Assembly (NCBI GenBank): GCA_035574235.1
Contig: DATLZA010000060.1
Coordinates: 2,231 to 66,230, forward strand
Origin: Planctomycetota bacterium
Lineage (GTDB): Bacteria; Planctomycetota; MHYJ01; JACPRB01
Length of the DNA stretch: 64,000 nt
Reading direction: 5' to 3'
Shown: positions 1 through 54,416 of the stretch, piece after piece
How positions within the stretch are numbered: the stretch's first letter is position 1
Layout: the number at the start of each line of letters is the position of its first letter
Notes under the pieces: generated by a model
Database searches by the model: none
Seen by the model: only the letters and a program-made list of their open reading frames with translations
What the model was told of the DNA's origin: nothing
Made by a program: the position numbers and the translations under genes

Positions 1-71
1 GGCAGGTTCCCGGGAAAATGAGTCTCCCTACCAGGAATCTAGCATGCTTTAGGGCACCTATCAACTTCGGG

Positions 72-395
72 TTATCGGAGCTGAGCGAGGTCCATGCCTT
101 CGATCGAACGCGGATCTCGAAGCACGACCGCGCCCCCGCTACGCGGGGCGGCACCGTGCCGATTCGAACCACCTCACTCCACCCGGCACGGGTGGCGTGC
201 GTCCCCGAAGGGGTTCGCCGAGCAAGCCCGGGAAGCTTGCCCAGGAGCAGCTTAACATACCGATCAGGGAGATCGGGCGGGGCTTCGGTCGCCGTCAGGC
301 GATCGCGCGTGTCCACCGCGCCCGGTCGTCGCGACGGCAGGTACAGCAAGGAAAGGGCTCCGCCAACCGATTGAGACGGCCCTGCGGAGTACTGC
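72..395. repeat. Copy A of a diverged ~325-nt direct repeat; candidate structured ncRNA or element of unknown family
   Basis: Aligns collinearly with 4172-4497. Long identical blocks include cgcggggcggcaccgtgccgatt and ccccgaaggggttcgccgagcaag. Hairpins are conserved: CCCCGC-TAC-GCGGGG at 134-148, CCCC-GAA-GGGG at 203-213, CCGATC-AGGGA-GATCGG at 260-276. The ORFs over it (18-374, 197-415) are Arg-rich, and similarity to copy B switches reading frame, so it is not coding. Strand undetermined. Confidence 0.8.
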
Positions 396-438
396 CCATC
401 CCCTCATATGGATGATCGTAATCACCTTCCGCGGATTT

Positions 439-684
439 CTATCCGTAAGTGTCGCCAATTAACTTAAGGGCAACGTTACAGTTCGGGCAACGGGCTTTGA
501 CGAATTGCTCAATCTCGTTTCCCCAGAGGAGACTAATTGCGCTCAAGCCCAGAGCCACGAGTGGATTGGACAGTCGGATACCGAAAAGAATCGCCACAAC
601 GACGCCGAGGCCCTTCACCGTACCTGTGGCTGTTACGTCGTACACCAACCGACACGCCTCACATCGAGCATATGCCTTCGCCAT
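439..684 (-). CDS. 81-aa membrane protein: N- and C-terminal CxxC pairs (zinc-ribbon-like) flanking two hydrophobic helices; last gene of the Ubl operon
   Basis: ORF MAKAYARCEACRL...ARCPNCNVALKLIGDTYG. CEAC and CPNC motifs sit at the two ends. Two hydrophobic stretches: GLGVVVAILFGI and LVALGLSAISLLW. Same strand as the E1 gene and 61 nt downstream of it. No family recognised. Confidence 0.6.
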   Translation of the reverse strand: MAKAYARCEACRLVYDVTATGTVKGLGVVVAILFGIRLSNPLVALGLSAISLLWGNEIEQFVKARCPNCNVALKLIGDTYG

Positions 685-745
685 AAGATCACCCTTTCAA
701 TCGTTACGGCTGGAATTCCATTCGCTTGGCCGACGACGAGGGAGC

Positions 746-2221
746 TCAGCCCATAGGCTTCTCCTTTCGCCTCGCACGTTTGCCGTTGCGCGAATGCTGC
801 TGATTTCGGCCGCGGCGTGCCTTCTCCGCCGCCGTATGGCAAATGACCGTCCCCGGATGCCCTCCGGCCTCGCCCAGACCTACCAGTTGGCCAAGAGCAC
901 AGTCGGATCGACAACTGCCGTGATCAAGATCAACATGGCCAGTAACGAAGTGATAATTCTGGCCACCGGGATTTCCTATTCCGCTCGGGGCGACGACCAA
1001 CGATAGAAACTGCAGAATCTCTAGAGACGCGGTTGCAACGCTAAAGGCGAAGACGTTCTGTCGGCTTTTCACCGGATGGTCGCTCGGAAGCGATTGGATG
1101 TACGTCGGATCCTCAAAATGTCCCTCGCGTTCGGCCTGCACCAGGCCTGCATCGTACTGCGCGAGACACTCTAAACAGCGCCTGCCGACTGTGGCGATGT
1201 GAGCCTTCCAATCCGCCCCGCGCATCCTCCCGCTCGGTTTTCGGGAGACATAAATCCCCCCATCTACCACTGGGATCAGATGCGCGTACGCGATGAAGTT
1301 TAGGACGCTTCGCGGCCAAGGCCGATCGACACAGCTGAAAAGAACGTCGCAGTCGAGAGCGATCCTGTAACCATCGTCCTCGCAAACGCTCAGTTCGTGC
1401 TCATTCGCCTCGAACTCTTCAATAACTGCGCTCTTTCGGATCGCTTCCGCCGAAATCGAAACTTTAGAGCGATGAGCCTCGGCGTCCATCGGATATGCGT
1501 GCAGCGTGCGGTCGAGGTTGAACCGCTCAATGGACTCGAAGTCGATCAACTCGATCCTGCTAATTCCGGAGCGTGCCAATGTTTCAGCGATAATGCTTCC
1601 CACACTCCCCAACCCCACGATACCTACACGGATGCGGCTAATGATTCCCTGGGTTGCCGGGCCCCAAGCAGAAATTGTCCTATCGAGCTGCTGCCCGAAC
1701 TTCGGCGTTGGAAGCAGATGTTCGGCGAGTGTGATAGCAAGTCTGTCGCCAATGACCCGAACGCTCTCACACCAACTATGGATATAGGTTCGCCGCCCGG
1801 TGCGATTCCAGAAGCGCGCACTCCAGGCACCATCGAGCGCGCCGAGGGTAAGCCCAAGCAGGGGGAGTCCCGTGGCCGAAAGAACCGCCGGTGCCATCCC
1901 CTTTTCGGCTTCCACATCAGGGCGGCTCATATTTTGCCAACCCTGCCAGGGATGACTATGCATGAACGCAAGACCCCCACCCGCCTTCAGCGCCGCGGAA
2001 AGTGCCCTTTCGAAAAATCCCGGATGGAATTCGGCATTCCCATGTACGGACCTATCACCTTCCTCAGGAAGAACGACTGAATGAAGAAGAGCTGTAATGC
2101 GCCGCTTACCGCGGCTGGGGTACCAAATTCCGAAGCAGAGATCCTCCTGGCCGTCTGACCGCGCCAAATGGGCGATGGCGGCCTCGTGCACCGCTTCCGT
2201 CAACGCCGTGCTATACCTCAT
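746..2221 (-). CDS. JAB/JAMM metallopeptidase - ThiF/MoeB-type E1 (ubiquitin-activating-like) fusion protein
   Basis: N-terminal part has a JAMM-like motif, FMHSHPWQGWQNMSRPD. Central part has a Rossmann glycine loop (VGIVGLGSVGSIIAETLARSG) and paired Cys motifs (CLEC ... CRSDC) typical of ThiF/MoeB/E1 folds. Start placed at the internal ATG at 2221, which overlaps the E2 stop by 1 nt (TGATG). The longer ORF to 2320 would overlap the E2 gene by 100 nt. Confidence 0.8.
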   Translation of the reverse strand: MRYSTALTEAVHEAAIAHLARSDGQEDLCFGIWYPSRGKRRITALLHSVVLPEEGDRSVHGNAEFHPGFFERALSAALKAGGGLAFMHSHPWQGWQNMSRPDVEAEKGMAPAVLSATGLPLLGLTLGALDGAWSARFWNRTGRRTYIHSWCESVRVIGDRLAITLAEHLLPTPKFGQQLDRTISAWGPATQGIISRIRVGIVGLGSVGSIIAETLARSGISRIELIDFESIERFNLDRTLHAYPMDAEAHRSKVSISAEAIRKSAVIEEFEANEHELSVCEDDGYRIALDCDVLFSCVDRPWPRSVLNFIAYAHLIPVVDGGIYVSRKPSGRMRGADWKAHIATVGRRCLECLAQYDAGLVQAEREGHFEDPTYIQSLPSDHPVKSRQNVFAFSVATASLEILQFLSLVVAPSGIGNPGGQNYHFVTGHVDLDHGSCRSDCALGQLVGLGEAGGHPGTVICHTAAEKARRGRNQQHSRNGKRARRKEKPMG

Positions 2222-2583
2222 CACATCGTCGCAAAGAGGTGATTGATAAACGCAAGGTACGCCTTTACAGTCCGACCGTCTTTGCCCCAGTTGGTGTACG
2301 GTCGGCTCAGATACTGCCAATCGGAACCAAAATCACTTGCGGCCACCCGACCCGGGTGGGAATCCGCGCTGGGGTTAAGCGGAAAAAGGCAAGGTGAAAG
2401 ATGTGGCCCGCTCGGCGGAATCCTTGGGAATTCGGGAGGCGCCACGAAGCCGAGAAAGATCTCCGTCCCGATAAACCGGCCGGCCATCACGATATAGCGA
2501 AAGACAGTACGCGCATCGCGCCTTTCCTCGGGCTTGTACCCAAGGAGACGGAGCTCTGTCTCGAACTGCTCCCGGCCTTCCAC
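2221..2583 (-). CDS. Small E2 (UBC-like) protein, prokaryotic E2 family-E-like
   Basis: 120 aa with a single cysteine in the context PPSGPHLSPCLFPLNP. Sits between the Ubl and the JAB-E1 fusion, which is the published multiubiquitin / Prok-E2 / JAB-E1 neighbourhood. GTG start overlaps the Ubl stop by 1 nt (TAGTG). Family call rests on motif and context, not on an HMM run. Confidence 0.6.
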   Translation of the reverse strand: MEGREQFETELRLLGYKPEERRDARTVFRYIVMAGRFIGTEIFLGFVAPPEFPRIPPSGPHLSPCLFPLNPSADSHPGRVAASDFGSDWQYLSRPYTNWGKDGRTVKAYLAFINHLFATM

Positions 2584-2840
2584 TAGGACACCGGTACAGG
2601 ACCGATGAAGGCCGTAATGAATTTCTGCTTCTCGTGGATTTGAATGGGCTCGTCCATCTTGTCTTTGTAGGAGGTCTGATCTTTGCCCCGAATCTCGATG
2701 AGATACCTCTGCTCAGGGTCGAGTCCGGCGTTCTTGACGATTTGGCGAGGCGTCAACTGGTGGGATGAAGTCTCCTGCGGCTCACCGTCCACCGTGTAGT
2801 CGAACACGACCCCCTGCCCCTTCTCGTTCGCACTGGACAT
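2583..2840 (-). CDS. Ubiquitin-like protein, multiubiquitin-domain type (single domain)
   Basis: Sequence VVFDYTVDGEPQETSSHQLTPRQIVKNAGLDPEQRYLIEI...IQIHEKQKFITAF fits the multiubiquitin beta-grasp pattern. First gene of the operon. ATG at 2840 is preceded by GGAGGA (2848-2853); the ORF-track ATG at 2855 is the alternative. C-terminus is PVPVS, with no Gly-Gly. Confidence 0.65.
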   Translation of the reverse strand: MSSANEKGQGVVFDYTVDGEPQETSSHQLTPRQIVKNAGLDPEQRYLIEIRGKDQTSYKDKMDEPIQIHEKQKFITAFIGPVPVS

Positions 2841-2858
2841 ATTCGAATCCTCCATACT

Positions 2859-2919
2859 GTTGTAATTCTACAACAACACCTGGAGGCCTGTCAAGGAGCC
2901 GTTGTATTTTTTCTACAAC
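2859..2919. promoter_or_regulatory. Two palindromic operator-like sites sharing GTTGTA/TACAAC half-sites in the divergent intergenic region
   Basis: GTTGTA-ATTC-TACAAC at 2859-2874 and GTTGTA-TTTTTTC-TACAAC at 2901-2919. A third TACAAC half-site lies at 2994-2999, with an imperfect left half at 2979-2984. Confidence 0.7.
2865..2894 (-). promoter_or_regulatory. Sigma70-like promoter of the Ubl-E2-JAB/E1 operon
   Basis: Minus strand reads TTGACA (plus 2889-2894), then an 18-nt spacer, then TAGAAT (plus 2865-2870). The -10 lies inside the 2859-2874 palindrome. Confidence 0.55.
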
Positions 2920-2959
2920 GCCCGGAAGTGCCGATTGGCGCTATTTTTTCGAATAACGC

Positions 2960-2987
2960 TTGCCTTTTTGTCGGCTCAGTGTAGTAT
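2960..2987 (+). promoter_or_regulatory. Sigma70-like promoter of the HTH/ImmA regulator pair
   Basis: TTGCCT (2960-2965), 16-nt spacer, TAGTAT (2982-2987). The TACAAC half-site at 2994-2999 is at the predicted transcription start. Confidence 0.45.
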
Positions 2988-3036
2988 CTTGAATACAACA
3001 CTTCTCCCCAACGTTATCGGGATAGAGGACTAGCCT

Positions 3037-3411
3037 ATGGCAAAAACTGGTAAGTTTGGGGCCTTCTTCAAGGAATGCCGAATTGCCTTGGGCATCACCC
3101 TGCGGGAATTTTGCGAGAAGCACGGCCTGGACCCGGGGAATCTGAGCAAGCTGGAAAGGGGTCTACTGCCGCCTCCGCAATCGCGCGAGAAGCTCGAGGA
3201 ATATGCCGCGGCACTTCAACTGAAGAAGGGCAGCACCCAATGGCGCGACTTCTTCGATTTCGCCTTCGTGGAACAGGGCCGAATCCCGGACCATGTAATG
3301 GCGAAAGAGGAGTTGGTGAAGCGACTTCCGGTCCTATTCCGCACCATGGCTGGGAAGCGGGCTACGCCCAAGCAGCTTGACAAGCTCGTCAAGATGCTTC
3401 AGGATCCGTAA
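3037..3411 (+). CDS. XRE-family helix-turn-helix transcriptional regulator (CapH-like)
   Basis: N-terminal FKECRIALGITLREFCEKHGLDPGNLSKLERG matches the HTH_3/XRE pattern. Divergent from the Ubl operon and immediately upstream of an ImmA-like peptidase. Confidence 0.8.
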   Translation: MAKTGKFGAFFKECRIALGITLREFCEKHGLDPGNLSKLERGLLPPPQSREKLEEYAAALQLKKGSTQWRDFFDFAFVEQGRIPDHVMAKEELVKRLPVLFRTMAGKRATPKQLDKLVKMLQDP

Positions 3412-3440
3412 CGCGCCATTTGGCGGAGAGAGGGAGGGGT

Positions 3441-4067
3441 ATGGGGAAACTCCCCGTACCGGTGCTGTCCTACAACGCAATCGCGCGGGAAGCCAATAAC
3501 TTCCTGCGCCAGCACCACCCTTCAGGCTCCATCCCTATCCCCATTGAAGAGATCATCGACCTCAAATTAAAGCTCGATATCTTTCCGATGCCGGGACTGC
3601 TCAAATCGATCGACATTGACGGGTTTACGACCTCGGATCTGAAGTGCATCTGCGTCGACGAATTCGTCTACTCCAGCCGGCCCACCCGCTATCGGTTTAC
3701 GCTGGCGCATGAGTTGGGCCACATCATCCTGCACCAGAAGATCTTCGAACTCGCCAAATTCCGCACCGTGGCAGAATGGAAACGGTTCTACAAGAACATT
3801 CCGGAGGAAGATAGAGGCTGGCTGGAGTACCAAGCCTACGCCTTTGGTGGCTTGGTACTCGTTCCATCGGCCGCTCTTGGCCCAGAATTCGAGAAGTGCG
3901 TGGCGACTGTGAAGCGAAAGGGCGGGGCTCTACTGAAGGATGCAGAGGTCACCCAATACTTTGTCGAGGACTGTCTTGCCGATGTGTTCCAGGTATCTCG
4001 CGAAGTCATCTCCAAGCGCCTCGTCAAAGACGGGCTGGATCGCCAAATTCCAGGCGCGAGGAAGTAG
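3441..4067 (+). CDS. ImmA/IrrE-family zinc metallopeptidase (CapP-like)
   Basis: HEXXH motif HELGHIILH, followed by EYQAYAFGGLVLVP as in ImmA/IrrE. ATG at 3441 is preceded by GAGAGAGGGAGGGG. The ORF-track start at 3420 is a TTG. Confidence 0.8.
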   Translation: MGKLPVPVLSYNAIAREANNFLRQHHPSGSIPIPIEEIIDLKLKLDIFPMPGLLKSIDIDGFTTSDLKCICVDEFVYSSRPTRYRFTLAHELGHIILHQKIFELAKFRTVAEWKRFYKNIPEEDRGWLEYQAYAFGGLVLVPSAALGPEFEKCVATVKRKGGALLKDAEVTQYFVEDCLADVFQVSREVISKRLVKDGLDRQIPGARK

Positions 4068-4171
4068 CAAGGAGATCGGACCAGCCCCCCGCCCCTCCTT
4101 TAGAAGGGACTGTCAACACTGAACTTGCCGTTTGGAACTCGTGACGGGTGGAGGTGGCTTGCGACAGCGTC

Positions 4172-4497
4172 GGACAATCGGAGGTGAGCGAGGTTCGTGC
4201 CGTCGATAGAGCGTGGCTCCCGGAGGAACTCCGCGCCCCCGCGACGCGGGGCGGCACCGTGCCGATTTCGCCAACCGCATGCCACCCGGCACGAGTGGCA
4301 TCCCTCCCCGAAGGGGTTCGCCGAGCAAGGCCGGGGTGCTTGCCCAGGAGGAGCCTACCACCCCGACAAGGAGTCGGGCAGGGCTTTGGCCGCCCGAGGG
4401 CAGCCGCGCGTGTCCGCCGCGCGCGGTCATCGCGACCGCAGGTACTGCAAGGGAAAGGGGCTCCGCGGACCGGTCGAGACGGCCCTCCAGAGTACGA
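4172..4497. repeat. Copy B of the diverged ~325-nt direct repeat; candidate structured ncRNA or element
   Basis: Collinear with 72-395. Hairpins are retained with compensatory changes: CCCGAC-AAGGA-GTCGGG at 4362-4378 versus CCGATC-AGGGA-GATCGG in copy A, and ATGCCAC...GTGGCAT at 4279-4301 versus ACTCCAC...GTGGCGT at 176-198. Confidence 0.8.
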
Positions 4498-4581
4498 CAG
4501 GAATAGCTTTCTCGGTCTCGTCAATCTGCACGGATTGCCGTAACAGGCGGTTTATCGCGTTTTACGGCCTCCAGCGGCCGG

Positions 4582-4630
4582 GGCGCGGCGCGTCAGTGTT
4601 GACGGAGCGCCAACACTAACGCGCCGCGCC
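4582..4630. repeat. Long near-perfect inverted repeat (20-bp arms, 9-nt loop)
   Basis: ggcgcggcgcgtcagtgttg-acggagcgc-caacactaacgcgccgcgcc, with 19 of 20 arm positions complementary. No U-tract follows on either strand, so it is not a classical intrinsic terminator. Confidence 0.85.
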
Positions 4631-4874
4631 GACGACCGACGCGGCGGGCACCACGCGCTTCCGTCACCGGAGCCTTCGCCACCGTACCCTTGGCTCGCGA
4701 ACACGTTCGCGGGTGGTCCGAGGTCACGATGGCAAGCCGGATTATCGGGTGCGGCAACGGGGCTGGGGGATGGGTTTGGTGGAGGGTGGCGTTCGGGCCA
4801 TTCGTCCATCCTGCGGGCAAGACGGGCGAGCGGCCCGGCCCCGGCACCTGCGCCGGGGCCAGACCCTCGTTGAG

Positions 4875-5393
4875 CTACTGACCGTTGTTCCGCCAGATGC
4901 CAGTGTCCTTCTCGGCTTCGCTGACCATCGTCTGGAATCGCCGCCAAGCGGCACGACCGTCGCCGAAGCGGACGAGTTCCTGGAGCTGGCGCTCCGTGAA
5001 GTACCGGAGGTACTGCGGCTCGTGGTGCTGCCGAAGGAAAGCCTTGATCGGCTCAGGCAGCTCCAGGAGCTTGATGTATCGCCCCACCCGGTTGACCGGC
5101 TCCCCGAGGAGGAGAGAAAGGCCCCGGAAACTACGCATCCGGCGCTCCTTCATCTCCCGGGCGTAGAACTCGGCCCGTTCCAGGGGGGTCTTCTGGCGCT
5201 TGAGGACGGTCTGGTACTGCTTCCAGACCTTCTTGTCGATGCTGCCCAACCCCTTGAGGACACCGGGTTTGGGCCCGACGACGAACTCCTTGCGCCGGTC
5301 GACCGACCGGCTATAGTAGGGCGTGATGTCCCGGAGGGGACGGCCCTCCGACAGGGGAGGTTGTTTCGTCGGGAGTAGCCGAAGGCCCACCAT
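4875..5393 (-). CDS. Hypothetical protein with a ParB/KorB-like HTH segment
   Basis: 172 aa with balanced, Lys-containing composition, unlike the surrounding Arg-rich spurious ORFs. The segment VGRYIKLLELPEPIKAFLRQH resembles the ParB-family HTH region. The N-terminal ParB domain is not evident. Confidence 0.5.
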   Translation of the reverse strand: MVGLRLLPTKQPPLSEGRPLRDITPYYSRSVDRRKEFVVGPKPGVLKGLGSIDKKVWKQYQTVLKRQKTPLERAEFYAREMKERRMRSFRGLSLLLGEPVNRVGRYIKLLELPEPIKAFLRQHHEPQYLRYFTERQLQELVRFGDGRAAWRRFQTMVSEAEKDTGIWRNNGQ

Positions 5394-5458
5394 CCCGACC
5401 CCGCCGGGCGCTTCCGGACGATCTTCCGGCAGATGGCTCGGATCTCGTTCCCGGCGTC

Positions 5459-5704
5459 ATGGCCGGGCGGCGCGGAGCGCGGCCGGCGATCCTCTCCGCG
5501 CGGGGGTCTCTCGGAAAGGCGGAATTCCTGGAGCTCAAAGACGCTCTCGGGTTCGCCCAGGGCGACCTGAGCGTCCACGCCCGGAAGCTCGAGGATGACG
5601 GCTCTCTCGCCGTCGTCAAGGACTTCGTCGGACGCATGCTCCGCACCACGTTCAAGATCAACCCGGGGGGCGGCAGGCGCTCGTCCGCCATATCCGTCCG
5701 CTGA
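5459..5704 (+). CDS. Short winged-helix transcriptional regulator-like protein (HTH_34-like), possibly degenerate
   Basis: FLELKDALGFAQGDLSVHARKLEDDGSLAVVKDFVGRMLRTTFKIN follows the winged-helix pattern (L..L...l.lt.GnLs.Hl.kLe..Gyv...k.f.gr..rT). Start uncertain; short and atypical at both ends. Confidence 0.4.
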   Translation: MAGRRGARPAILSARGSLGKAEFLELKDALGFAQGDLSVHARKLEDDGSLAVVKDFVGRMLRTTFKINPGGGRRSSAISVR

Positions 5705-5875: not shown

Positions 5876-6697
5876 TCACGGAGAGGGGAAAAATCCCAAG
5901 TACACGTTCGCCACCGCGAGGCCGTTGTGCACGAAATGGGCGAACATCGGCGGATAGAGGCTCCCCGACCGCTGCCGCAGCCATCCGAAGTACAGCCCGA
6001 GCGGCACGTGCGTGAAAAGCGAAAGCACCGAGAGGTGCAGAATCGCGAAGCCCACCGACGAGAGGACCAGCGCCTCCCCCTTCCCCACATACCTCTCCAG
6101 CACCCCATAGACCACACCGCGGAAGGCCACCTCCTCGAGGACAGGAGGAACGACACAGATCAAAAGAAAGACCCAGACGAAGCCCTCCTCCTGGAGCGAC
6201 AGCATCCTGTCCGCCGCCGGCAATCCGAACAGCGCCTGCATCCCGGAAACGAAGCCGCAGACGAAGGCGAAGACCACCGCTCCGACCGGCACGAGCGCCA
6301 AGTATCCCCGCAGGCCGAATCCCGGAGCGCTGAAGAGCCCTTCCAGCGCCCTTCGGTGGCGGCGCGCCGCGGCGGCCGTGGCCGCCCCCATGAGGACGTC
6401 GCCCGCCAGAAGCGCCCTTCCCTCCGTCCCCCCCAACCGCGCCACCAGAGCCGTCACGGCCTGCACGCCCAGGAGAACCGCGTAGAAAACGATAACGGTC
6501 CGGATCTCCCGCCACTCGACCTCCGCTCTCCGCAGGCGCTCGAGGAGCGTGTCCTCGACCCGGGGCGGCGGATCCCCCGTGCGATGCCCGCAGTGGGCGC
6601 AGAACAGCCCTCCGGGCTTCAGCGGATGCGCACAGGCGGCGCAAGCAACCGGCGGCGGGCCGGGTTCGGGATCCGACGCGTCCATCGACTCAGGCAA
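5876..6697 (-). CDS. CPBP-family intramembrane glutamic endopeptidase (CAAX protease / Abi family) with N-terminal zinc ribbon
   Basis: EEVAFRG motif, later FAILH and HFVHN motifs, and multiple TM segments. The N-terminus has CAACAH...CAHCGH. Confidence 0.75.
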   Translation of the reverse strand: MPESMDASDPEPGPPPVACAACAHPLKPGGLFCAHCGHRTGDPPPRVEDTLLERLRRAEVEWREIRTVIVFYAVLLGVQAVTALVARLGGTEGRALLAGDVLMGAATAAAARRHRRALEGLFSAPGFGLRGYLALVPVGAVVFAFVCGFVSGMQALFGLPAADRMLSLQEEGFVWVFLLICVVPPVLEEVAFRGVVYGVLERYVGKGEALVLSSVGFAILHLSVLSLFTHVPLGLYFGWLRQRSGSLYPPMFAHFVHNGLAVANVYLGFFPSP

Positions 6698-7307
6698 GCT
6701 CGCCGGAAATCCGGCGCGCGCGATACCCGGCCGAGACGGCCGTCAGCAGACCCCCGACGACGATGATCTTGATGAGGATTCCTTGGTAGAGGGTCTTGGG
6801 CTCCACGATCGCGCTCACGACCACCACGGTCAGGAAAATCAGAAGCGCGCTCAGCGCGGCCGCGAAAGCGTTCCGCCGGGCCCATATCCAGAGGCCGAAG
6901 TAGACGGCCGTCAACACGAGGTTCACGACCAGATTCGCCACAACCATGCGCCGGTCGTATTCCACGGCCTCCGCCCACGTCATGCCGATGCGCTCTTTCA
7001 TCACCCGGTCGCGCTCTTCGGGATCGATCCCCGCCATGGCGGCCTCGGCATTGCGGATCTGGGCCTCCACCTGAGACTTCTGGACCATGTAGATGACGAC
7101 GCCGCTCACCAGCGTCAGGATGGCCACCGCCAGAATATAGCGGCGCCCCTTCCGCGCCGCTTCAAGCTGTCGGCCCCCTTCTCGAAGAGCCTGCGCCCGA
7201 ACGGCGGCCTCCTCGAGCTCCTCCGGCGACGTTCCGACCCTGTGGCCGCACCGGGCGCAGAAGTTCTCACCCTCGGCGACCGCCGAACCGCATTCCGGAC
7301 AGTTCAT
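6690..7307 (-). CDS. Zinc-ribbon membrane protein, hypothetical
   Basis: Starts MNCPECGSAVAEGENFCARCGH, followed by a coiled segment and several TM helices. Start moved to the ATG at 7307. The 3' end overlaps the CPBP gene start by 8 nt. Confidence 0.6.
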   Translation of the reverse strand: MNCPECGSAVAEGENFCARCGHRVGTSPEELEEAAVRAQALREGGRQLEAARKGRRYILAVAILTLVSGVVIYMVQKSQVEAQIRNAEAAMAGIDPEERDRVMKERIGMTWAEAVEYDRRMVVANLVVNLVLTAVYFGLWIWARRNAFAAALSALLIFLTVVVVSAIVEPKTLYQGILIKIIVVGGLLTAVSAGYRARRISGELA

Positions 7308-7510
7308 GACCGGAATTCTATCCCGACGGAACCCCAACGGGTCGGAAAATCGTCGCACGTCCCCACCCCCGGACGAGCGAAGCGAACCCGGGGCGCTTGC
7401 CCAGGAGATCGGGAGCTCTTCGGGGGCGATGGCGCTCCGCGCCCCGAGGCACGGGGGGACGGAGGCTCCCGTCCACGGCGTCCCACCCTGCCGGCCGATT
7501 CCCCCCTCCC

Positions 7511-9181
7511 TTACGGCTTCTCAAGAAGAAGAAGATGGGCGTCGCGCCCTCCCCCGGGCTCCTTCTGAATCGCATTGAGCACCGGCGTGGGAGTGGCCTC
7601 CGGCTCATCGTCGCGCCCCTTCGTGCGGCCCACGACGACGATCCCCCGCCCCGTCGGCCAGAGGCGCGCATTCTCGTATCCGGGCAGGTAACTCGAGAAA
7701 AGGAGATTCTCGAACCCGGCGTCATAAACGACGACGCATTCCCCGCCGTACCCCCGCCCGCCGCCGGGATAACGGTAGAAGGCCCCCGGCGTCTGCACCA
7801 GGACCGAAGCCGCCGAACCCGCCACCGCCACCGCCCCGTCCGGACAAACCTGGATCTGCCGGATCCGGGCCCCGTTCGGAGACCCCGCCTTGCGGGCGTC
7901 GCTGAAATCAGCCGGAAAATAGGCGACCCAAAGAACGTGCGACTTCGCCTCGAGCGACGAACCGTCGATGCGGACGATGTGCGCCAGCGAATTGGCGCCC
8001 TTCATTCCGGAGCCGTCCATGCTCCACGGGGCCGGCGGCACGCCGCGCGCCGCGTCCGTCGGCTGACGCGCAAAAACGCTGTTCCCGCCGTCGGACCACC
8101 CGCCGACATAAAGATCCCCGTCCGGTCCCCGGTCGAGCGCCCGAACCGACGAGTCCGCCACAAGACCCTGCAATCCTGGGGTCACACCGTCCCGGAGACT
8201 CCGGGGCGCCCATTCCCAGAGCTTCCACACCCTGCGTCCTTCCCGATCGAACTTGTAAAGATACGGCTGCCTCCAGGGCTCCTTGCCGGTGTGCGTGTTC
8301 CGGTCGCCCCCGAAATAGGCCGATCCGTCATCCGGATCCACCGCCAACCAACGGGCCTGCCCTCCGCCGGCCATTTCGGAAAGACGCTTCCAGGAGGATC
8401 CGCCGGGAGCCACCTGAATCAACCCCCGCACGTCCGCGTACACGAAGCCCTCGCGATCCGTCCAGATTTCTTCCGGCGGACGCCCCGCTCCCTCGAAAAC
8501 CCAGGCCCACTCGGCCTTCCCTTCAAGGGACATCCGGCAGATGAAAACGTCCCCCGGACAGGACACCCCTTCGTACTCATAAGGCCCCGTCGTCCGTGAC
8601 GCGTTCTTTCCGGGCGGCTCGGACGCCGGGGGGACCGTCCGAACGGTCGGCGGAACGGCGCGGAAGGCGGCCGTCGCCCGCCCGGCCAGAAGAAAGGCGC
8701 GGCCGTCGGAACTCACCGTCGCCGCGCTCAAACTCGCCACCCCCCAGTCGAATCGAAACACCTTCCGCAGGTGCGAGGCATCCGGGGCGTAGAGCGCCAC
8801 CATGCCGGCGATGTCGGGATTCTCGGGACGCAGGAACGGGCGGCCCCGGGAATCCGTCCCGAAAGCCTTCAATCCCCTGTGTTCTCCCCGCCCCCACACG
8901 ACGGCCGGAACCGGAAACGAAGGACCCCACGCGTTCCCGAAGGCGACGATCGTGCCGTCCCCAAGAACCCGGACGGCGAAGAATTCTTCATCGGAGGGGC
9001 CGCCCAGATAGGTGGCGGCGACCGGCTTCATCTTGGGGCCGCGGCTCGCCCGCTCCGTATATCCCTCGAAGCGCCCCTTCCGGCGGACCTCCTGACCGGC
9101 CTGCGGGGCCGCAAAGGCGACCGCCGCCCCGAAAACCAAACATCCGATTCCGACCTGCCTCATGCGATCCCGTCTCCTCAT
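7511..9181 (-). CDS. Secreted beta-propeller-repeat (SBBP-like) protein, hypothetical
   Basis: A signal-peptide-like segment (MRQVGIGCLVFGAAVAFAAPQA) follows the internal ATGs at 9181 and 9163. Recurring GG.SD/GGD..G motifs, for example YLGGPSDEEFF and LYVGGWSDGGNSVF. The upstream part of the 671-aa ORF is Ser/Arg-rich and unlikely to be translated. Confidence 0.55.
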   Translation of the reverse strand: MRRRDRMRQVGIGCLVFGAAVAFAAPQAGQEVRRKGRFEGYTERASRGPKMKPVAATYLGGPSDEEFFAVRVLGDGTIVAFGNAWGPSFPVPAVVWGRGEHRGLKAFGTDSRGRPFLRPENPDIAGMVALYAPDASHLRKVFRFDWGVASLSAATVSSDGRAFLLAGRATAAFRAVPPTVRTVPPASEPPGKNASRTTGPYEYEGVSCPGDVFICRMSLEGKAEWAWVFEGAGRPPEEIWTDREGFVYADVRGLIQVAPGGSSWKRLSEMAGGGQARWLAVDPDDGSAYFGGDRNTHTGKEPWRQPYLYKFDREGRRVWKLWEWAPRSLRDGVTPGLQGLVADSSVRALDRGPDGDLYVGGWSDGGNSVFARQPTDAARGVPPAPWSMDGSGMKGANSLAHIVRIDGSSLEAKSHVLWVAYFPADFSDARKAGSPNGARIRQIQVCPDGAVAVAGSAASVLVQTPGAFYRYPGGGRGYGGECVVVYDAGFENLLFSSYLPGYENARLWPTGRGIVVVGRTKGRDDEPEATPTPVLNAIQKEPGGGRDAHLLLLEKP

Positions 9182-22456: not shown

Positions 22457-22529
22457 TGGGCGCTACAGGACTCGAACCTGTGACCTCTTGGGTGTGATCC
22501 AAGCGCTCTACCAACTGAGCTAAGCGCCC
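22457..22529 (-). tRNA. tRNA-Val (anticodon CAC)
   Basis: The reverse complement folds as GGGCGCT-TA-GCTC AGTTGGTA GAGC-G-CTTGG ATCACAC CCAAG-AGGTC-ACAGG TTCGAGT CCTGT-AGCGCCC-A. CCA is not encoded. Confidence 0.9.
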
Positions 22530-32689: not shown

Positions 32690-32970
32690 GGCGCGCTGGG
32701 CCGGGGAAGTAGCGGTGCCTCCGCCCGAAAGGGTGCCTCAACCCGCTTCAGAGGGGTCGACCGCTTCCCCGAGGCCGTCCGGCGTGTGCAGCGCACGGGC
32801 ACGTGGCGTCGATCCGGGCGTCCGGTGCAACTTGGGTGCGGTGAACCCCGCCAGGTCCGGAAGGAAGCAACGGTAGCCGATTGCCCTCGTGTGCCGCCGG
32901 GTTGCGTCCGGGGAGCCGGCGACCCGGAAGCGGGCCCATGTTGGGACGGTCGAAGGGAAGCTGCGCGCCT
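32690..32970 (+). ncRNA. ffs: Signal recognition particle RNA, long form with Alu domain (Bacillus-type scRNA-like)
   Basis: Domain IV core CCAGGTCCGGAAGGAAGCAAC...GTGTGCCGCCGGGTTGC at 32851-32905. Alu-domain-like GGGGAAGTAGCGGTGCC at 32703-32719. The 5' GGCGCGC-TGGGCC pairs with the 3' GGGCCCA...GCGCGCC (32963-32969). A T-run follows. Ends are approximate, within about 10 nt. Confidence 0.8.
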
Positions 32971-40474: not shown

Positions 40475-40551
40475 GTGCCCGTAGCTCAACTGGATAGAGC
40501 GTCTGGCTACGAACCAGAAGGCTGCAGGTTCAAGTCCTGCCGGGCACACCA
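40475..40551 (+). tRNA. tRNA-Arg (anticodon ACG), CCA encoded
   Basis: GTGCCCG-TA-GCTC AACTGGATA GAGC-G-TCTGG CTACGAA CCAGA-AGGCT-GCAGG TTCAAGT CCTGC-CGGGCAC-A-CCA. Confidence 0.9.
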
Positions 40552-45678: not shown

Positions 45679-48600
45679 TTGCAACGCGCGGGCGATCATG
45701 GTACCACTGGGACTGCCGTGGAGGTGACGCGCCGGTCGTTCCTCAAGGTTTCCGCCGCGGGCGCCCTCGTCACGCCCCTCGGCTTCGATCTCTCCCCCGC
45801 CCTGGCCGAGGCCCGCCGGTTCAAGATCGCCCGCACGACCGAAACCCGCTCGATCTGCCCCTACTGCTCCGTCTCCTGCGGCGTCATCGTCCACACGCGC
45901 GGCGACGGCAAGAACACCCAGCGACAGATCGTCCACGTGGAAGGCGACCCGGACCACCCGATCAACCAGGGCACGCTCTGCCCCAAAGGCGCCACCCTCA
46001 AACACTACGTGGACAACGACCGCCGCCTCGTGCGCCCCCTCCATCGCGCCCCCGGGGCGCGGGAGTGGACCCCGATCTCCTGGGACGAGGCCGTCGACCG
46101 CATCGCCCGCCGGATCAAGGCCACGCGGGACGCGACCTTCGTGGCCCAGGACGCGCGCGGCCGGCGCGTCCACCGCCTGGAGTCGATCGCCGCGATCGGC
46201 GGATGCACGGACACCAACGAATTCAACTGGCTCTTCCAGAAAACCGCCCGCGCCCTCGGCATCGTCCACCTGGAACAGCAATCGCGGATCTGACACGGCC
46301 CCACGGTGGCGAGTCTCGCCCCCACGTTCGGCCGCGGCGCGATGACCAACGGATGGACCGACATCCGCAACGCCGACGTCATCCTGGCCATGGGCGGCAA
46401 CCCCGCCGAGAATCACCCCTGCGGCTTCAAGTGGGCGATCGAGGCCAAGAAGAAGCGCGGCGCCCGGCTCGTCTGCGTGGACCCGCGTTACAACCGCACC
46501 GCCGCCGTCAGCGACGCCTTCGTCCCGATCCGCTCCGGCACCGATATCGCCTTCCTGGGCGGCCTCATCCGCCACGCGCTGGAAAACCGCCGCTTCCATG
46601 AGGAGTACGTCCGGCTCCACACGAATGCGCTCTTCCTGCTCGAACCCGGCTCGGAGTTCGACCCCCGGGAAGGCGTCTTCGGAGGCTTCGACGGGACCCG
46701 CTACGACCGCTCCCGCTGGAGATACCGCCTCGACGACAAGGGCTTCGCCCGCCGGGCGGCGTCGCTCGACGATCCGGACTGCGTCTTCCAGCATCTGCGG
46801 CGCCACTTCTCGCGCTACACGCCCGAAGTCGTCGCGGACATCTGCGGCTGCTCCCGTGAAGACTTCCTCAGGGCCGCCGACATCGTCACGTCGACCGGCA
46901 CCCCGGACCGCGTGGGCACGATCCTGTACGCCCTCGGCTGGACCCAGCACTCGACGGCCGTCCAGATCATCCGGTCCGCGGCGATCCTGCAGCTCCTGCT
47001 CGGCAACGTGGGCCGCCCGGGCGGGGGCGTGAACGCCCTGCGCGGCCACGCCAACATCCAGGGCGGCACCGACCACGGCGTGGCCTATCACGCGCTGCCC
47101 GGATATCTTCGGATGCCCGAACCGGACGACCGAACGGCGGCGGACTACCTGCGTCGCCTGATCCCGCCCGCCCTGTCTCCGACCTCCATGAACTACTGGG
47201 CCCACGCCGACCGCTTCTTCGTCTCCCTCATGAAGGCCCTGTACGGCAAGGCCGCCACGGCGGAAAACGACTGGGCCTACGACTGGCTCCCCAAAGTCGA
47301 CGGCAACTACTCGTGGGTCTACATCTTCGACCGCATGTATCGCGGCCAGATCCGTGGGTTTCTCGTCTTCGGCATGAACCCCGTGGCCAACGGGCCCAAC
47401 TCCGAAAAGATCCTCGCGGCCCTCTCGAAGCTGGAATGGATGGTCGTGGCCGAGGCCTTCGAAACGGAAACCGCCGCCTTCTGGAAGGTCGCCGGAGACA
47501 ACCCCCGGACCGAAGTCTTCCTCCTCCCGGCAGCCATCTTCGCGGAAAAGGACGGCTCGTTCACGAACTCCTCCCGCTGGGCTCAGTGGAAGTACAAGGC
47601 GGCCGACCCGCCGGGGCTGGCCAAGACCGACCAGGAAATCCTCGCGCGGATCTTCCTGCGCCTCCGCCAGCTCTACGCGGCCGAGGGAGGCGCTTTCCCC
47701 GATCCGATCCTGGGGCTGGACTGGTCGTACAAGAATCCCTTCGAGCCCTCGCTCGAGGAAATCGCCCGCGAGATCAACGGACGGGACCTGGCGACGGGCC
47801 GGCAGCTTTCGGGATTCGCCGAGCTCAAGGCGGACGGGACCACCGCGTGCGGCAACTGGCTCTACTGCGGAAGCTTCACGGAAGCCGGCAATCTCATGGC
47901 GCGGCGCGATCCCCGCGACCCTTCCGGGCTGGGCCGCTACGAGGGCTGGGCCTGGAACTGGCCCATGAACCGCCGCGTCCTCTACAACCGCGCCTCCGCC
48001 GACGCCCAGGGACGTCCCTGGGATCCCTCGCGGCCGGGCATCGTCTGGGACGGCTCCCGCTGGATCGGCGACGTGCCGGACCTGCGCCCCGACGCCCCCC
48101 CCGGGACGCTCGACGCCTTCATCATGCTTCCGGAGGGAGTCGCCAAGCTCTGGGCGCCCGACTTCGCCGACGGTCCCTTCCCGGAACATTACGAGCCGGC
48201 CGAACATCCGGTTGATAATCCCCTCCACCCGAAACGCACGACGAACCCGGTCGCCCCGATCCTCACGAGCGACCTCGACAGGCTTGGAAGCTCCCGCGAG
48301 TACGATCTCGTGGCCACGACCTTCCGGCTCACGGAGCATTTCCATTACTGGACCAAGCACGTGGCCCCGACGGCGCTCCTTCAGCCCGAGTTCTTCGTCG
48401 AGATCCCCGAAGAACTGGCCGCCGCGCGCGGGTGGCGCAACGGCGACCGCGTCCGCGTCTCGACCCCCCGCGGATCCGTCGAGGGCCGGGCGCTGGTGAC
48501 CCGCCGGATCCGCCCCCTGAAGGTCGCCGGCAAGACGGTCTGGCAGGTGGCGCTTCCCATCCACTGGGGCTTCACCGGCCGGACGGACAAGGGACGCGAC

Positions 48601-53549: not shown

Positions 53550-54416
53550 TCAAGCCCGCGGCCCCGACGCATCCCGAGAGACCGGACCCCGTCTCTCCTC
53601 GCCAAGCACCTCCAGCACCGCCCGGTTCCATCCCTCGGGACCGGCGCCGTCCGCCCGCCGCAAGCCGGGCACCTGCGCCGCCAGCTCGGAATCGAAGCTC
53701 CCGTCCGGTTTCCGAACCGCCACGGGCACGTCCACGGCCGAAAGAAGCGGGAGATCGTTCGGGCTGTCTCCGAGTCCGAGGGTGCGGATCGGCCCGAGCT
53801 TGCGCTCGAAGAGTTCCCGGAGGAGGCGGACCGCGCGGCCCTTGTCCGTGGCGCCGTGAAGGTGCCAGTAGCGCCCGCCCCGGGTGATGCGGAGCCCCCG
53901 CGACGCGGCCCACGCGGCCAGACCCGCCGCATGCCGCTCCTCGTCGGCCAGGAAACGGAAGGGCTCGTCGAATTCGCGCCGGGCGGCCAGCCGCGCCAGT
54001 TCCAGCGGAAGATTCGTTTCGCGGGCCACCTCCTCGGGGGTCATGTCGCTGAAGCCTCGGACCGCTCCGCCGGTTCGACGCTTGAGCTCGGCGAAGGCCT
54101 CGAGGATCCGTTCCCGGCCGCAGGACAGGGGCAGCAGCGCGTACGTTCCGCGATCCTCCCAGGGGGCCGCCCGTTCGTCGAAGTACCCGCGGGGCGCCCC
54201 GACGGCCGCGCCGTCTTCGGGAACGAAGGGATCCGGGAATCCGAGAAGCGCCTGGACATGGAGGATCTCGGCGGCGGTTTTGGAGCTGCACGGCACGAGG
54301 GGGATCCCGCGCCGCCGGAGCTCGGCCAGCGCCGGCCGGGCCGCCTCGAACGAATAGGTGCGCGCCTCCAGAAGGGTGGCGTCGAGATCCGTGAAGACGA
54401 CCCAGCGGGCGCTCAT
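53550..54416 (-). CDS. HAD-IIB phosphatase of the mannosyl-3-phosphoglycerate phosphatase (MpgP/YedP) family
   Basis: VVFTDLDATLL (DxD nucleophile), CSSKT and GLGDSPNDLPLL motifs. The ATG at 54416 overlaps the upstream stop. Confidence 0.8.
   Translation of the reverse strand: MSARWVVFTDLDATLLEARTYSFEAARPALAELRRRGIPLVPCSSKTAAEILHVQALLGFPDPFVPEDGAAVGAPRGYFDERAAPWEDRGTYALLPLSCGRERILEAFAELKRRTGGAVRGFSDMTPEEVARETNLPLELARLAARREFDEPFRFLADEERHAAGLAAWAASRGLRITRGGRYWHLHGATDKGRAVRLLRELFERKLGPIRTLGLGDSPNDLPLLSAVDVPVAVRKPDGSFDSELAAQVPGLRRADGAGPEGWNRAVLEVLGEERRGPVSRDASGPRA

Follow-up and report, generated by a model that had tools for sequence, protein, structure and literature searches.

The question raised by this locus is which bacterial conjugation system is encoded by a compact operon for a ubiquitin-like protein (Ubl), an E2-like protein, and a JAB peptidase fused to an E1-type adenylation domain, by what chemistry it works, and to what end. 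The operon lies in a 64-kb stretch of DNA from a Planctomycetota bacterium (contig DATLZA010000060.1, positions 2,231 to 66,230), here called the window, and all coordinates are given in window positions. Bacterial Ubl conjugation has only recently been opened to experiment, through Bil, Cap2 of the system for cyclic oligonucleotide-based antiphage signaling (CBASS), and Bub. We read the locus as a stress-inducible protein-tagging cassette of the Bub (bacterial ubiquitination-like; Aravind "6E") lineage and as a member of an unnamed, large subfamily without the DUF6527 protease, a reading to which we assign a probability of about 0.72. An earlier interpretation made from the DNA alone (the sequence-only reading) had described four minus-strand genes at 439-2855 as a complete Bil/Bub-like operon. 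All four open reading frames (ORFs) were found where it had placed them, and a functionally linked pair of plus-strand genes fell outside its span. The features of the locus are as follows.

2583..2855, minus strand: Ubl ORF (BubA-like; single beta-grasp domain, multi-ubiquitin family), ending in ...FIGPVPVS-stop
2221..2583, minus strand: E2-like gene (BubB-like, Prok-E2_E lineage), 120 aa, with a GTG start overlapping the Ubl stop
746..2221, minus strand: 491-aa fusion (BubCD-like) of a JAB/JAMM peptidase and a ThiF/E1 adenylation domain; Pfam ThiF E 1.9e-23
439..684, minus strand: 81-aa membrane zinc-ribbon gene, lineage-specific accessory; an ORF with sub-threshold zinc-ribbon Pfam matches
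3037..3411, plus strand: CapH-type XRE-family helix-turn-helix (HTH) repressor, 124 aa; Pfam HTH_31 and HTH_3; divergent from the Ubl operon
3420..4067, plus strand: CapP-type ImmA/IrrE (M78) zinc metallopeptidase with HELGH; Pfam Peptidase_M78, PADLOC capP; probable start at ATG 3441 (208 aa)
2856..3036, no strand: divergent control region of 181 nt, with two palindromes and a sigma-70-like promoter
448..4092, no strand: mobile six-gene cassette of 3.65 kb (81-aa gene, JAB-E1, E2, and Ubl, with CapH-like and CapP-like genes divergent)

The minus-strand genes were tightly coupled. The Ubl stop and E2 start (TAG/GTG) share base 2583, the E2 stop and JAB-E1 start (TGA/ATG) share base 2221, and a 61-nt spacer separates the E1 stop (746) from the start of the 81-aa gene (684); these junctions, read directly in the sequence, agree with the earlier description. 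The overlap at 2221 fixes the JAB-E1 start at that ATG and hence its length of 491 aa, to which its residue numbers refer. For the Ubl, the true start is more likely ATG 2840 than 2855, because a GGAGGA Shine-Dalgarno sequence lies 7 nt upstream and because the resulting Ubl of 85 aa has the same length in a close relative, locus L091. In L091 the M78 peptidase gene likewise encodes 208 aa. The motifs listed by the sequence-only reading were all present: HSHP...S..D, CLEC, and CRSDC in the third gene product, a single E2 cysteine in PPSGPHLSPCLFP, and, in the 81-aa protein, a CxxC pair at either end. As a whole, its observations stood and its interpretation stood in part: the Ubl/E2/JAB-E1 module was upheld, and the catalytic cysteine, the completeness of the operon, and the statement on antiphage activity of Bub were not.

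Direct searches against Pfam, NCBIfam, and PADLOC recognized only the ThiF domain of the third gene product; its JAB part, the Ubl, and the E2 gave nothing significant. Prok-JAB reached 13.5 bits against the JAB-E1 protein (gathering cut-off 25), Multi_ubiq reached 14.6 bits against the Ubl (E 0.039; cut-off 24.5), and Prok-E2_E did not match the window E2 itself, so that these three families, which the earlier reading had named along with ThiF, came into view only via homologues. Comparison with solved structures was far more informative for the JAB-E1 protein, whose best match in the Protein Data Bank (PDB) was Citrobacter BubCD (9ea4), with an E value of 6.3e-21 from the single sequence and 9.5e-33 from a 20-sequence profile, across the JAB domain and into the E1 as far as residue 327. 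For a full-length comparison, a complete Type I Bub operon was taken from an Enterobacter IncHI2 plasmid (multiubiquitin protein, ThiF-family protein, and DUF6527 protein), and its BubCD aligned with the window protein by hhalign over 381 columns (probability 99.6%, E 5.7e-25), placing window Tyr374 opposite Y370. The JAMM residues (E26, H88, H90, S99, and D102), the E1 ATP site (G-x-G-x-x-G, R238, K253, and D299), the Cys4 motif (CxxC...Cx3C; C349, C352, C437, and C441), and Tyr374 were invariant in 80-81 of 81 family proteins, apart from the first Gly of G-x-G-x-x-G, which was kept in 72 of the 81. On this sequence evidence the third gene is a JAB-E1 fusion, as had been proposed.

The smaller partners were assigned through models and homologues. 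AlphaFold2 models of the E2 and the Ubl were built from alignments of little depth (8 and 3 sequences). The E2 model had a predicted local distance difference test score (pLDDT) of 85 and a predicted template modeling score of 0.79, and nearly all of its top 50 Foldseek matches were ubiquitin-conjugating (UBC)/E2 enzymes, including Citrobacter BubB (9eae_C; template modeling scores 0.54/0.51). Prok-E2_E matched 29 of 40 E2 homologues (best 4.9e-7). An hhalign comparison of the E2 family with BubB gave a probability of 72.5% and an E value of 3.2e-5; a search with the E2-family profile against PDB sequences did not find BubB, which hhalign and Foldseek did find. Modeled fold and family profiles together identify the second gene product as a predicted UBC-fold E2, in keeping with the original call. 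For the Ubl, the model had a pLDDT of 68 overall and approximately 80-90 over residues 31-90, and its top Foldseek matches were bacterial multi-ubiquitin proteins and BubA (8u38, 9d5b, 9cd2, and 9ea8_B; probability 0.84-1.00, root mean square deviation ~2.5 A). Multi_ubiq matched 15 of 28 family members (best 1.1e-15), and the third beta-grasp domain of the plasmid BubA matched the family Ubls at 1.7e-11. The first gene product is thereby assigned to the beta-grasp Ubls of the multi-ubiquitin family, a pattern that had been recognized in it before.

How, then, would such a module activate and transfer its Ubl? One answer is a canonical Bil-like thioester cascade, in which the E2 would use its cysteine in PPSGPHLSPCLFP and the E1 a cysteine of its own. 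The window E2 does have a single cysteine, Cys65, in the loop after the third strand, and the E1 has four invariant cysteines. However, the 75 other E2s of the family have R, H, L, S, or P in place of Cys65, so that the catalytic role first proposed for it fails the test of conservation in homologues on which that proposal had itself relied. The four E1 cysteines are spaced as CxxC...Cx3C, the usual arrangement at the structural zinc site in ThiF/MoeB-type enzymes, and the crossover region of 81 family E1s held no conserved cysteine besides that motif. Bil differs further in its separate JAB and E1, the latter with tandem adenylation domains, and the closest solved relatives of the window proteins, BubCD and BubB, function without cysteines (PMC11601596). 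A thioester cascade is, in our view, very improbable.

The residues that were conserved point instead to the oxyester chemistry described for Bub, in which Tyr and Ser oxyesters are combined with JAB processing and the operons are associated with CapH/CapP (PMC11601596). Tyr370 of BubCD is the proven oxyester-forming residue and Ser333 of BubB an experimentally shown Ubl acceptor (PMC11601596). Tyr374 of the window E1 was present in 81 of 81 family proteins and is the predicted E1 catalytic residue, in the crossover loop. Among 76 E2 sequences the invariant residues were P57, G59, S93, and R94; Ser93-Arg94 aligned to BubB Ser333-Arg334, and Ser93, within a W-S-R-P motif lined up with W-S-R-H of BubB, is the predicted E2 catalytic residue. 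Because the invariant Tyr374 and Ser93 align with BubCD Tyr370 and BubB Ser333, the conjugation machinery looks like one of Bub-type oxyester chemistry rather than a thioester cascade.

The C terminus of the Ubl had been singled out as unusual in ending with PVPVS rather than Gly-Gly, and this proved to be a family-wide trait. The motif G-[PE]-T-P-V-[SA] was kept across the family: among 73 unique Ubls, 51 stopped exactly at the Ser or Ala of the motif, 15 carried a short extension, and 7 were fused to the E2. In the fusions the junction came directly after ...PVS (e.g., ...GPTPVS|DGPI...; P0124 is another such fusion), and in members on actinobacterial plasmids the Ubl ended in PVA or DVA and the E2 motif was H-S-R. 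The simplest reading of these patterns is that the mature, activated terminus would be Ser or Ala, and that the JAB would cleave after it where needed, a stop codon having become fixed at the site of the protease in most lineages.

A non-Gly terminus also recalls MccB substrates, and with it a second alternative, that the locus serves as a sulfur carrier or in small-molecule or peptide biosynthesis (of ThiS/MoaD-ThiF or MccB type) instead of protein conjugation. MoeB and ThiF have a Cys4 zinc motif similar to the one here, and there was sub-threshold NCBIfam and PDB similarity to ThiF, MoeB, TcdA, and MccB in the Rossmann core. These NCBIfam matches were nevertheless all far under their cut-offs, and no rhodanese, sulfurtransferase, or cofactor-pathway gene was present in the cassette or in the related loci examined, whereas strict co-conservation linked the E1 to a partner of E2 fold and to an intact JAMM peptidase. 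The cassette is moreover mobile, of foreign G+C content, and placed under a CapH/CapP-type pair (see below). A biosynthetic role accordingly receives little credence, and protein conjugation of Bub type remains the preferred reading.

The two plus-strand genes that had been overlooked are the conserved fourth component of the system: a divergent CapH/CapP-type pair of HTH protein and M78 peptidase. The HTH protein matched Pfam HTH_31 (5.9e-7) and HTH_3 (1.2e-5) and, weakly, PADLOC capH (0.0036); the peptidase matched Peptidase_M78 (1.8e-13) and PADLOC capP (8.6e-11). An HTH/M78 gene or gene pair lay upstream of the Ubl-E2-JAB/E1 triad, mostly in divergent orientation, in approximately 60 of 82 related loci. 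The features of CapH/CapP were found here in order: an XRE-type HTH protein followed by a HELGH M78 peptidase, divergent transcription, and predicted palindromic operators in the shared promoter region. Two operator-like palindromes, GTTGTA-N4-TACAAC (2859-2874) and GTTGTA-N7-TACAAC (2901-2919), occupy the control region; the GTTGTA-N-TACAAC pattern occurred twice here and nowhere else in the 64 kb, and 100 shuffles gave an expectation of 0 matches. Both were found at the equivalent place in L091/L092 and were absent from the other 90 loci. A sigma-70-like promoter for the Ubl operon was recognized on the minus strand (TTGACA at 2894, 18 nt, TAGAAT ending at 2865; 11 of 12 positions matching), with its -10 element overlapping the first palindrome. 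Since regulators of the CapH/CapP type respond to DNA damage (PMC13373217, PMC11601596), the Ubl operon would, by analogy, probably stay under repression and be released once the peptidase has been activated by DNA damage or infection.

The six genes form one horizontally acquired, mobile cassette. Its G+C content was 55-59%, versus approximately 67-73% in the remainder of the window, and window 448-4092 aligned end to end with L091 224-3869 at 83% DNA identity between unrelated flanks, which in L091 include an insertion sequence (IS) IS3-type transposase fragment.

Repeats were observed around both copies of the cassette. In L091, inverted repeats of 169 nt (1-169 and 3881-4049; 98% complementary) bracket the six genes; one of them stands at the contig end and adjoins the IS3-type transposase fragment, and they could represent genuine terminal repeats or an artefact of assembly. 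Window 7350-7396 also matched 47 nt of this repeat. In the window, two direct non-coding copies of a ~330-nt element (62-395 and 4165-4497, plus strand; 80% identical) lie about 50-70 nt from each cassette end. A third, ~80% identical copy, with a ~70-nt insertion in one hairpin, was found beside a Fic gene in a Planctomycetales metagenome-assembled genome (L087 1374-1743). The element has several conserved GC-rich hairpins with 12 predicted pairs showing compensatory changes; it had no Rfam match, no synonymous bias in any frame, and no significant folding energy or z-score. It could be a structured RNA gene or an insertion-site repeat.

The 81-aa gene had been suspected to lie outside the described core, and this was borne out. 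Its product has a hydrophobic hairpin, whose Asn/His-Pro turn is conserved, between an N-terminal CxxC and a C-terminal CPxC (a split zinc ribbon), and seven sequences of the family shared C8, C11, P41, G55, C66, P67, and C69. No homologue was found in 85 related loci or, by a peptide-pattern scan, in species-representative genomes, and only 5 clusters among 1.84 billion representatives matched at E <= 1e-3. The gene follows the JAB-E1 gene in the closest relative, L091/L092; in L094, which lacks a Ubl operon in that neighborhood, a homologue stands directly after close homologues of the HTH protein (6e-45) and M78 peptidase (1e-55). Because it is absent from the 85 loci and follows the HTH/M78 pair in L094 without a Ubl operon, the gene is best described as a genuine, conserved but rare accessory that travels with the regulator pair and is not a core conjugation component. 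A degenerate BubE was considered for it and rejected, there being no DUF6527 match and a different cysteine spacing and architecture. In L094 the HTH/M78/81-aa set (3428-5674) faces a divergent operon of approximately 7 genes (upstream genes 1-3742, minus strand) without Pfam annotation, which may be another system under the same type of switch.

Relatives of the triad were encoded in at least 519 species genomes (pattern scan, one genome per species), distributed over Nitrospirota, Acidobacteriota, Planctomycetota, Chloroflexota, Actinomycetota, Bacteroidota, Verrucomicrobiota, Proteobacteria, candidate phyla radiation groups, and some archaea. The order Ubl-E2-JAB/E1 was kept in essentially every one of the 85 fetched loci with enough flank, a recurrence which argues that the arrangement is not due to chance. 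Downstream of the E1 gene, no gene family recurred among the related loci (82 scored for HTH/M78). Family members were also found on actinobacterial plasmids, where the Prokaryotic Genome Annotation Pipeline labels Ubl and E2 "hypothetical protein." A phage origin was rejected, as neither IMG/VR nor the GenBank phages contained relatives. Haloarchaeal plasmids carry a more distant version: on a Haloplanus plasmid (L098 2176-4701), two small genes precede a longer, 587-aa ThiF-family protein with ~30% E1 identity, followed by a DEAD/DEAH helicase; this version may be a further, archaeal variant of the Ubl/E2/JAB-E1 operon type.

The neighbors of the triad elsewhere bear on its role. They included type I restriction-modification systems, Mrr, AbiTii, Fic, DUF1016, an OLD-family ATPase-nuclease, NERD, integrases, resolvases, and transposases, a context that fits a host-borne, mobile defense or stress module. 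The output is probably antiphage or anti-mobile-element defense or a DNA-damage stress response, to judge from this context. The same Bub-type machinery might also serve only a general DNA-damage or stress response or the stabilization of mobile elements (addiction) and not antiphage immunity. The response of CapH/CapP-type regulators to DNA damage speaks for that alternative, as do the occurrence of the cassette on plasmids and next to IS elements or integrases. So does the state of knowledge on Bub: the sequence-only reading had counted it among systems shown to act in antiphage defense, which is incorrect, since Bub has no demonstrated phage protection (PMC13373217). Classical defense genes (type I restriction-modification, AbiTii, Mrr, and an OLD-family protein) nevertheless neighbor the triad at several loci, a placement still compatible with a stress role, and an immune function has been proven for the related modules Bil and CBASS Cap2/Cap3. 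We consider a role confined to stress or addiction rather unlikely, though far from negligible.

For the preferred reading, a stress-inducible tagging cassette of the Bub lineage, the following sequence of events can be proposed. The CapH-type repressor would occupy the two palindromes that, from their position, overlap the operon promoter. DNA damage or phage infection would activate the CapP-type M78 peptidase, which would cleave the repressor, by analogy with the ssDNA-activated cleavage in CapH/CapP, and transcription of the operon would follow. The E1 domain would adenylate the C-terminal Ser carboxylate of the 85-90-aa Ubl (...GPVPVS), and the Ubl would pass as an oxyester to E1 Tyr374, then to E2 Ser93, and then to target proteins, in a chemistry predicted from the alignments. 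In relatives, the JAB would cleave Ubl-E2 fusions or short C-terminal extensions. At this locus it most likely removes the tag from targets, because the Ubl is encoded in mature form, the JAMM residues are invariant even where no processing is needed, and there is no second protease (BubE).

Several points weigh against this reading. The chemistry and role of the subfamily are predictions from homology and context. Identity to BubCD is only ~24% for the JAB-E1 protein and identity to BubB only ~20% for the E2, with modest alignment confidence (72.5%). The E2 active-site environment differs from that of Type I BubB: Pro (S-R-P) here takes the place of the His that lies two residues beyond the catalytic Ser (S-R-H), and the counterpart of the Asp that Type I E2s also have is ambiguous. 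A C-terminal Ser or Ala would be without precedent as an E1 substrate in Bub. The serine protease BubE (DUF6527/PF20137) is the defining gene of the 544 published Bub operons and is present in all of them (PMC11601596), whereas a phmmer query with the plasmid BubE matched no ORF, in the window or in the 85 loci, at E <= 10, and PF20137 was absent from the precomputed Pfam annotation of 7 neighborhoods; to call the operon complete, as had been done, is therefore doubtful. Neither the HTH protein nor the M78 peptidase matched any solved CapH or CapP in sequence, and their assignment relies on family-level models with a weak capH score. The "defense island" context, lastly, is a qualitative judgment based on a handful of loci.

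Elsewhere in the window, two overlapping minus-strand genes (5876-6697 and 6690-7358) encode membrane proteins with N-terminal zinc ribbons, one with an Rce1-like CAAX protease domain; these genes lie just outside the low-G+C cassette and are probably unrelated host genes. The plus strand has Rfam gathering-level matches to a SECIS_3 selenocysteine insertion element (46288-46346) and to a large bacterial signal recognition particle RNA (32691-32968). The tRNAs comprise Val (22457-22529) and Arg (40475-40551); two additional, atypically long ARAGORN calls, Gly (8603-8695) and Asp (53873-53958), were without Rfam confirmation.

With relatives in at least 519 species genomes, the subfamily matches or exceeds in scale the set of 137 BubCD sequences used to define Type I Bub, and yet standard annotation presents the triad as "hypothetical," "hypothetical," and "ThiF family." Its Ser/Ala Ubl end challenges the near-universal rule of a C-terminal glycine, and it includes naturally occurring gene-fission variants whose break coincides with the protease site. 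Because it keeps the oxyester Tyr and Ser and has dropped the DUF6527 protease, it tests which parts of Bub are essential. The CapH/CapP-type switch offers a handle, through induction by DNA damage, for asking whether Bub-type systems serve immunity or stress.

Comparison with the three known systems places the locus as follows. With CBASS type II Cap2/Cap3 it shares similarity of the E1 Rossmann core (PADLOC E1-E2 models at 7e-12, local only), a JAB partner, and a divergent CapH/CapP-type pair. Cap2 is, however, an E2-E1 fusion with catalytic cysteines, the substrate is the C terminus of the cGAS/DncV-like nucleotidyltransferase and not a Ubl, and the cassette here contains no cyclase or effector gene. 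With Type I/II Bil (BilABCD, bacterial ISG15-like), whose conjugation of Ubl to proteins has a proven antiphage role, it shares the presence of Ubl, E2, JAB, and E1 in one operon with no E3. In Bil, though, the JAB (BilC) and E1 (BilD) are separate, whereas here one protein joins the JAB to a single adenylation domain; BilD has an inactive and an active adenylation domain in tandem and a catalytic-Cys domain, whereas no catalytic cysteine is conserved here; and Bil combines an E2 that has a catalytic cysteine with a Gly-ended Ubl, whereas the Ubl here ends in Ser. Similarity to Bil was seen only at the level of the beta-grasp fold, and of the earlier label "Bil/Bub-like" only the second half can be kept, given the BubCD match and the more distant, thioester-forming Bil.

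Type I Bub (BubAB/BubCD/BubE; Aravind "6E.1"; Ye, Gong, Chambers & Corbett, PMC11601596) shares far more: an N-terminal JAB fused to a single-domain, homodimer-type E1 whose crossover Tyr aligns with Y370; a predicted UBC-fold E2 with no conserved Cys, whose W-S-R aligns, at modest confidence, to S333; a beta-grasp Ubl of the multi-ubiquitin family; the gene order Ubl-E2-JAB/E1, with the Ubl-E2 fusion kept in some family members; and frequent CapH/CapP regulators. Besides the universal presence of BubE there, the differences are that Ubl and E2 are separate genes in ~90% of the loci here (fused in 7 of 73), whereas BubAB is fused in Bub; that the stop codon here sits exactly at the processing site; that the Ubl ends in Ser/Ala (G-x-T-P-V-S/A), whereas the Bub Ubl is cleaved by the JAB after a conserved Gly; that the E2 has S-R-P rather than S-R-H; that the E1 keeps CxxC...Cx3C, which BubCD does not; and that a CapH/CapP-type pair accompanies ~73% of the loci here versus 31% in Bub. 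We tentatively raise the possibility, with the odds leaning against it, that the BubE-less subfamily is a mechanistically distinct third Bub type, with a Ser/Ala-ended Ubl, a Tyr/Ser oxyester relay, a zinc-site E1, and the JAB as sole eraser. If so, the Ser terminus or the S-R-P site could direct another acceptor chemistry or target class than Gly-ended Ubls do, and the 81-aa membrane zinc-ribbon protein could serve such cassettes as an effector that acts on membranes or as an anchor. By sequence comparison, the nearest known system is Type I Bub (Aravind "6E") and not Bil. Together, these comparisons place the locus outside both Type I Bub proper and Bil-like systems, in a BubE-less, Ser/Ala-terminated subfamily that is homologous to Type I Bub and departs from it in two of its defining features.

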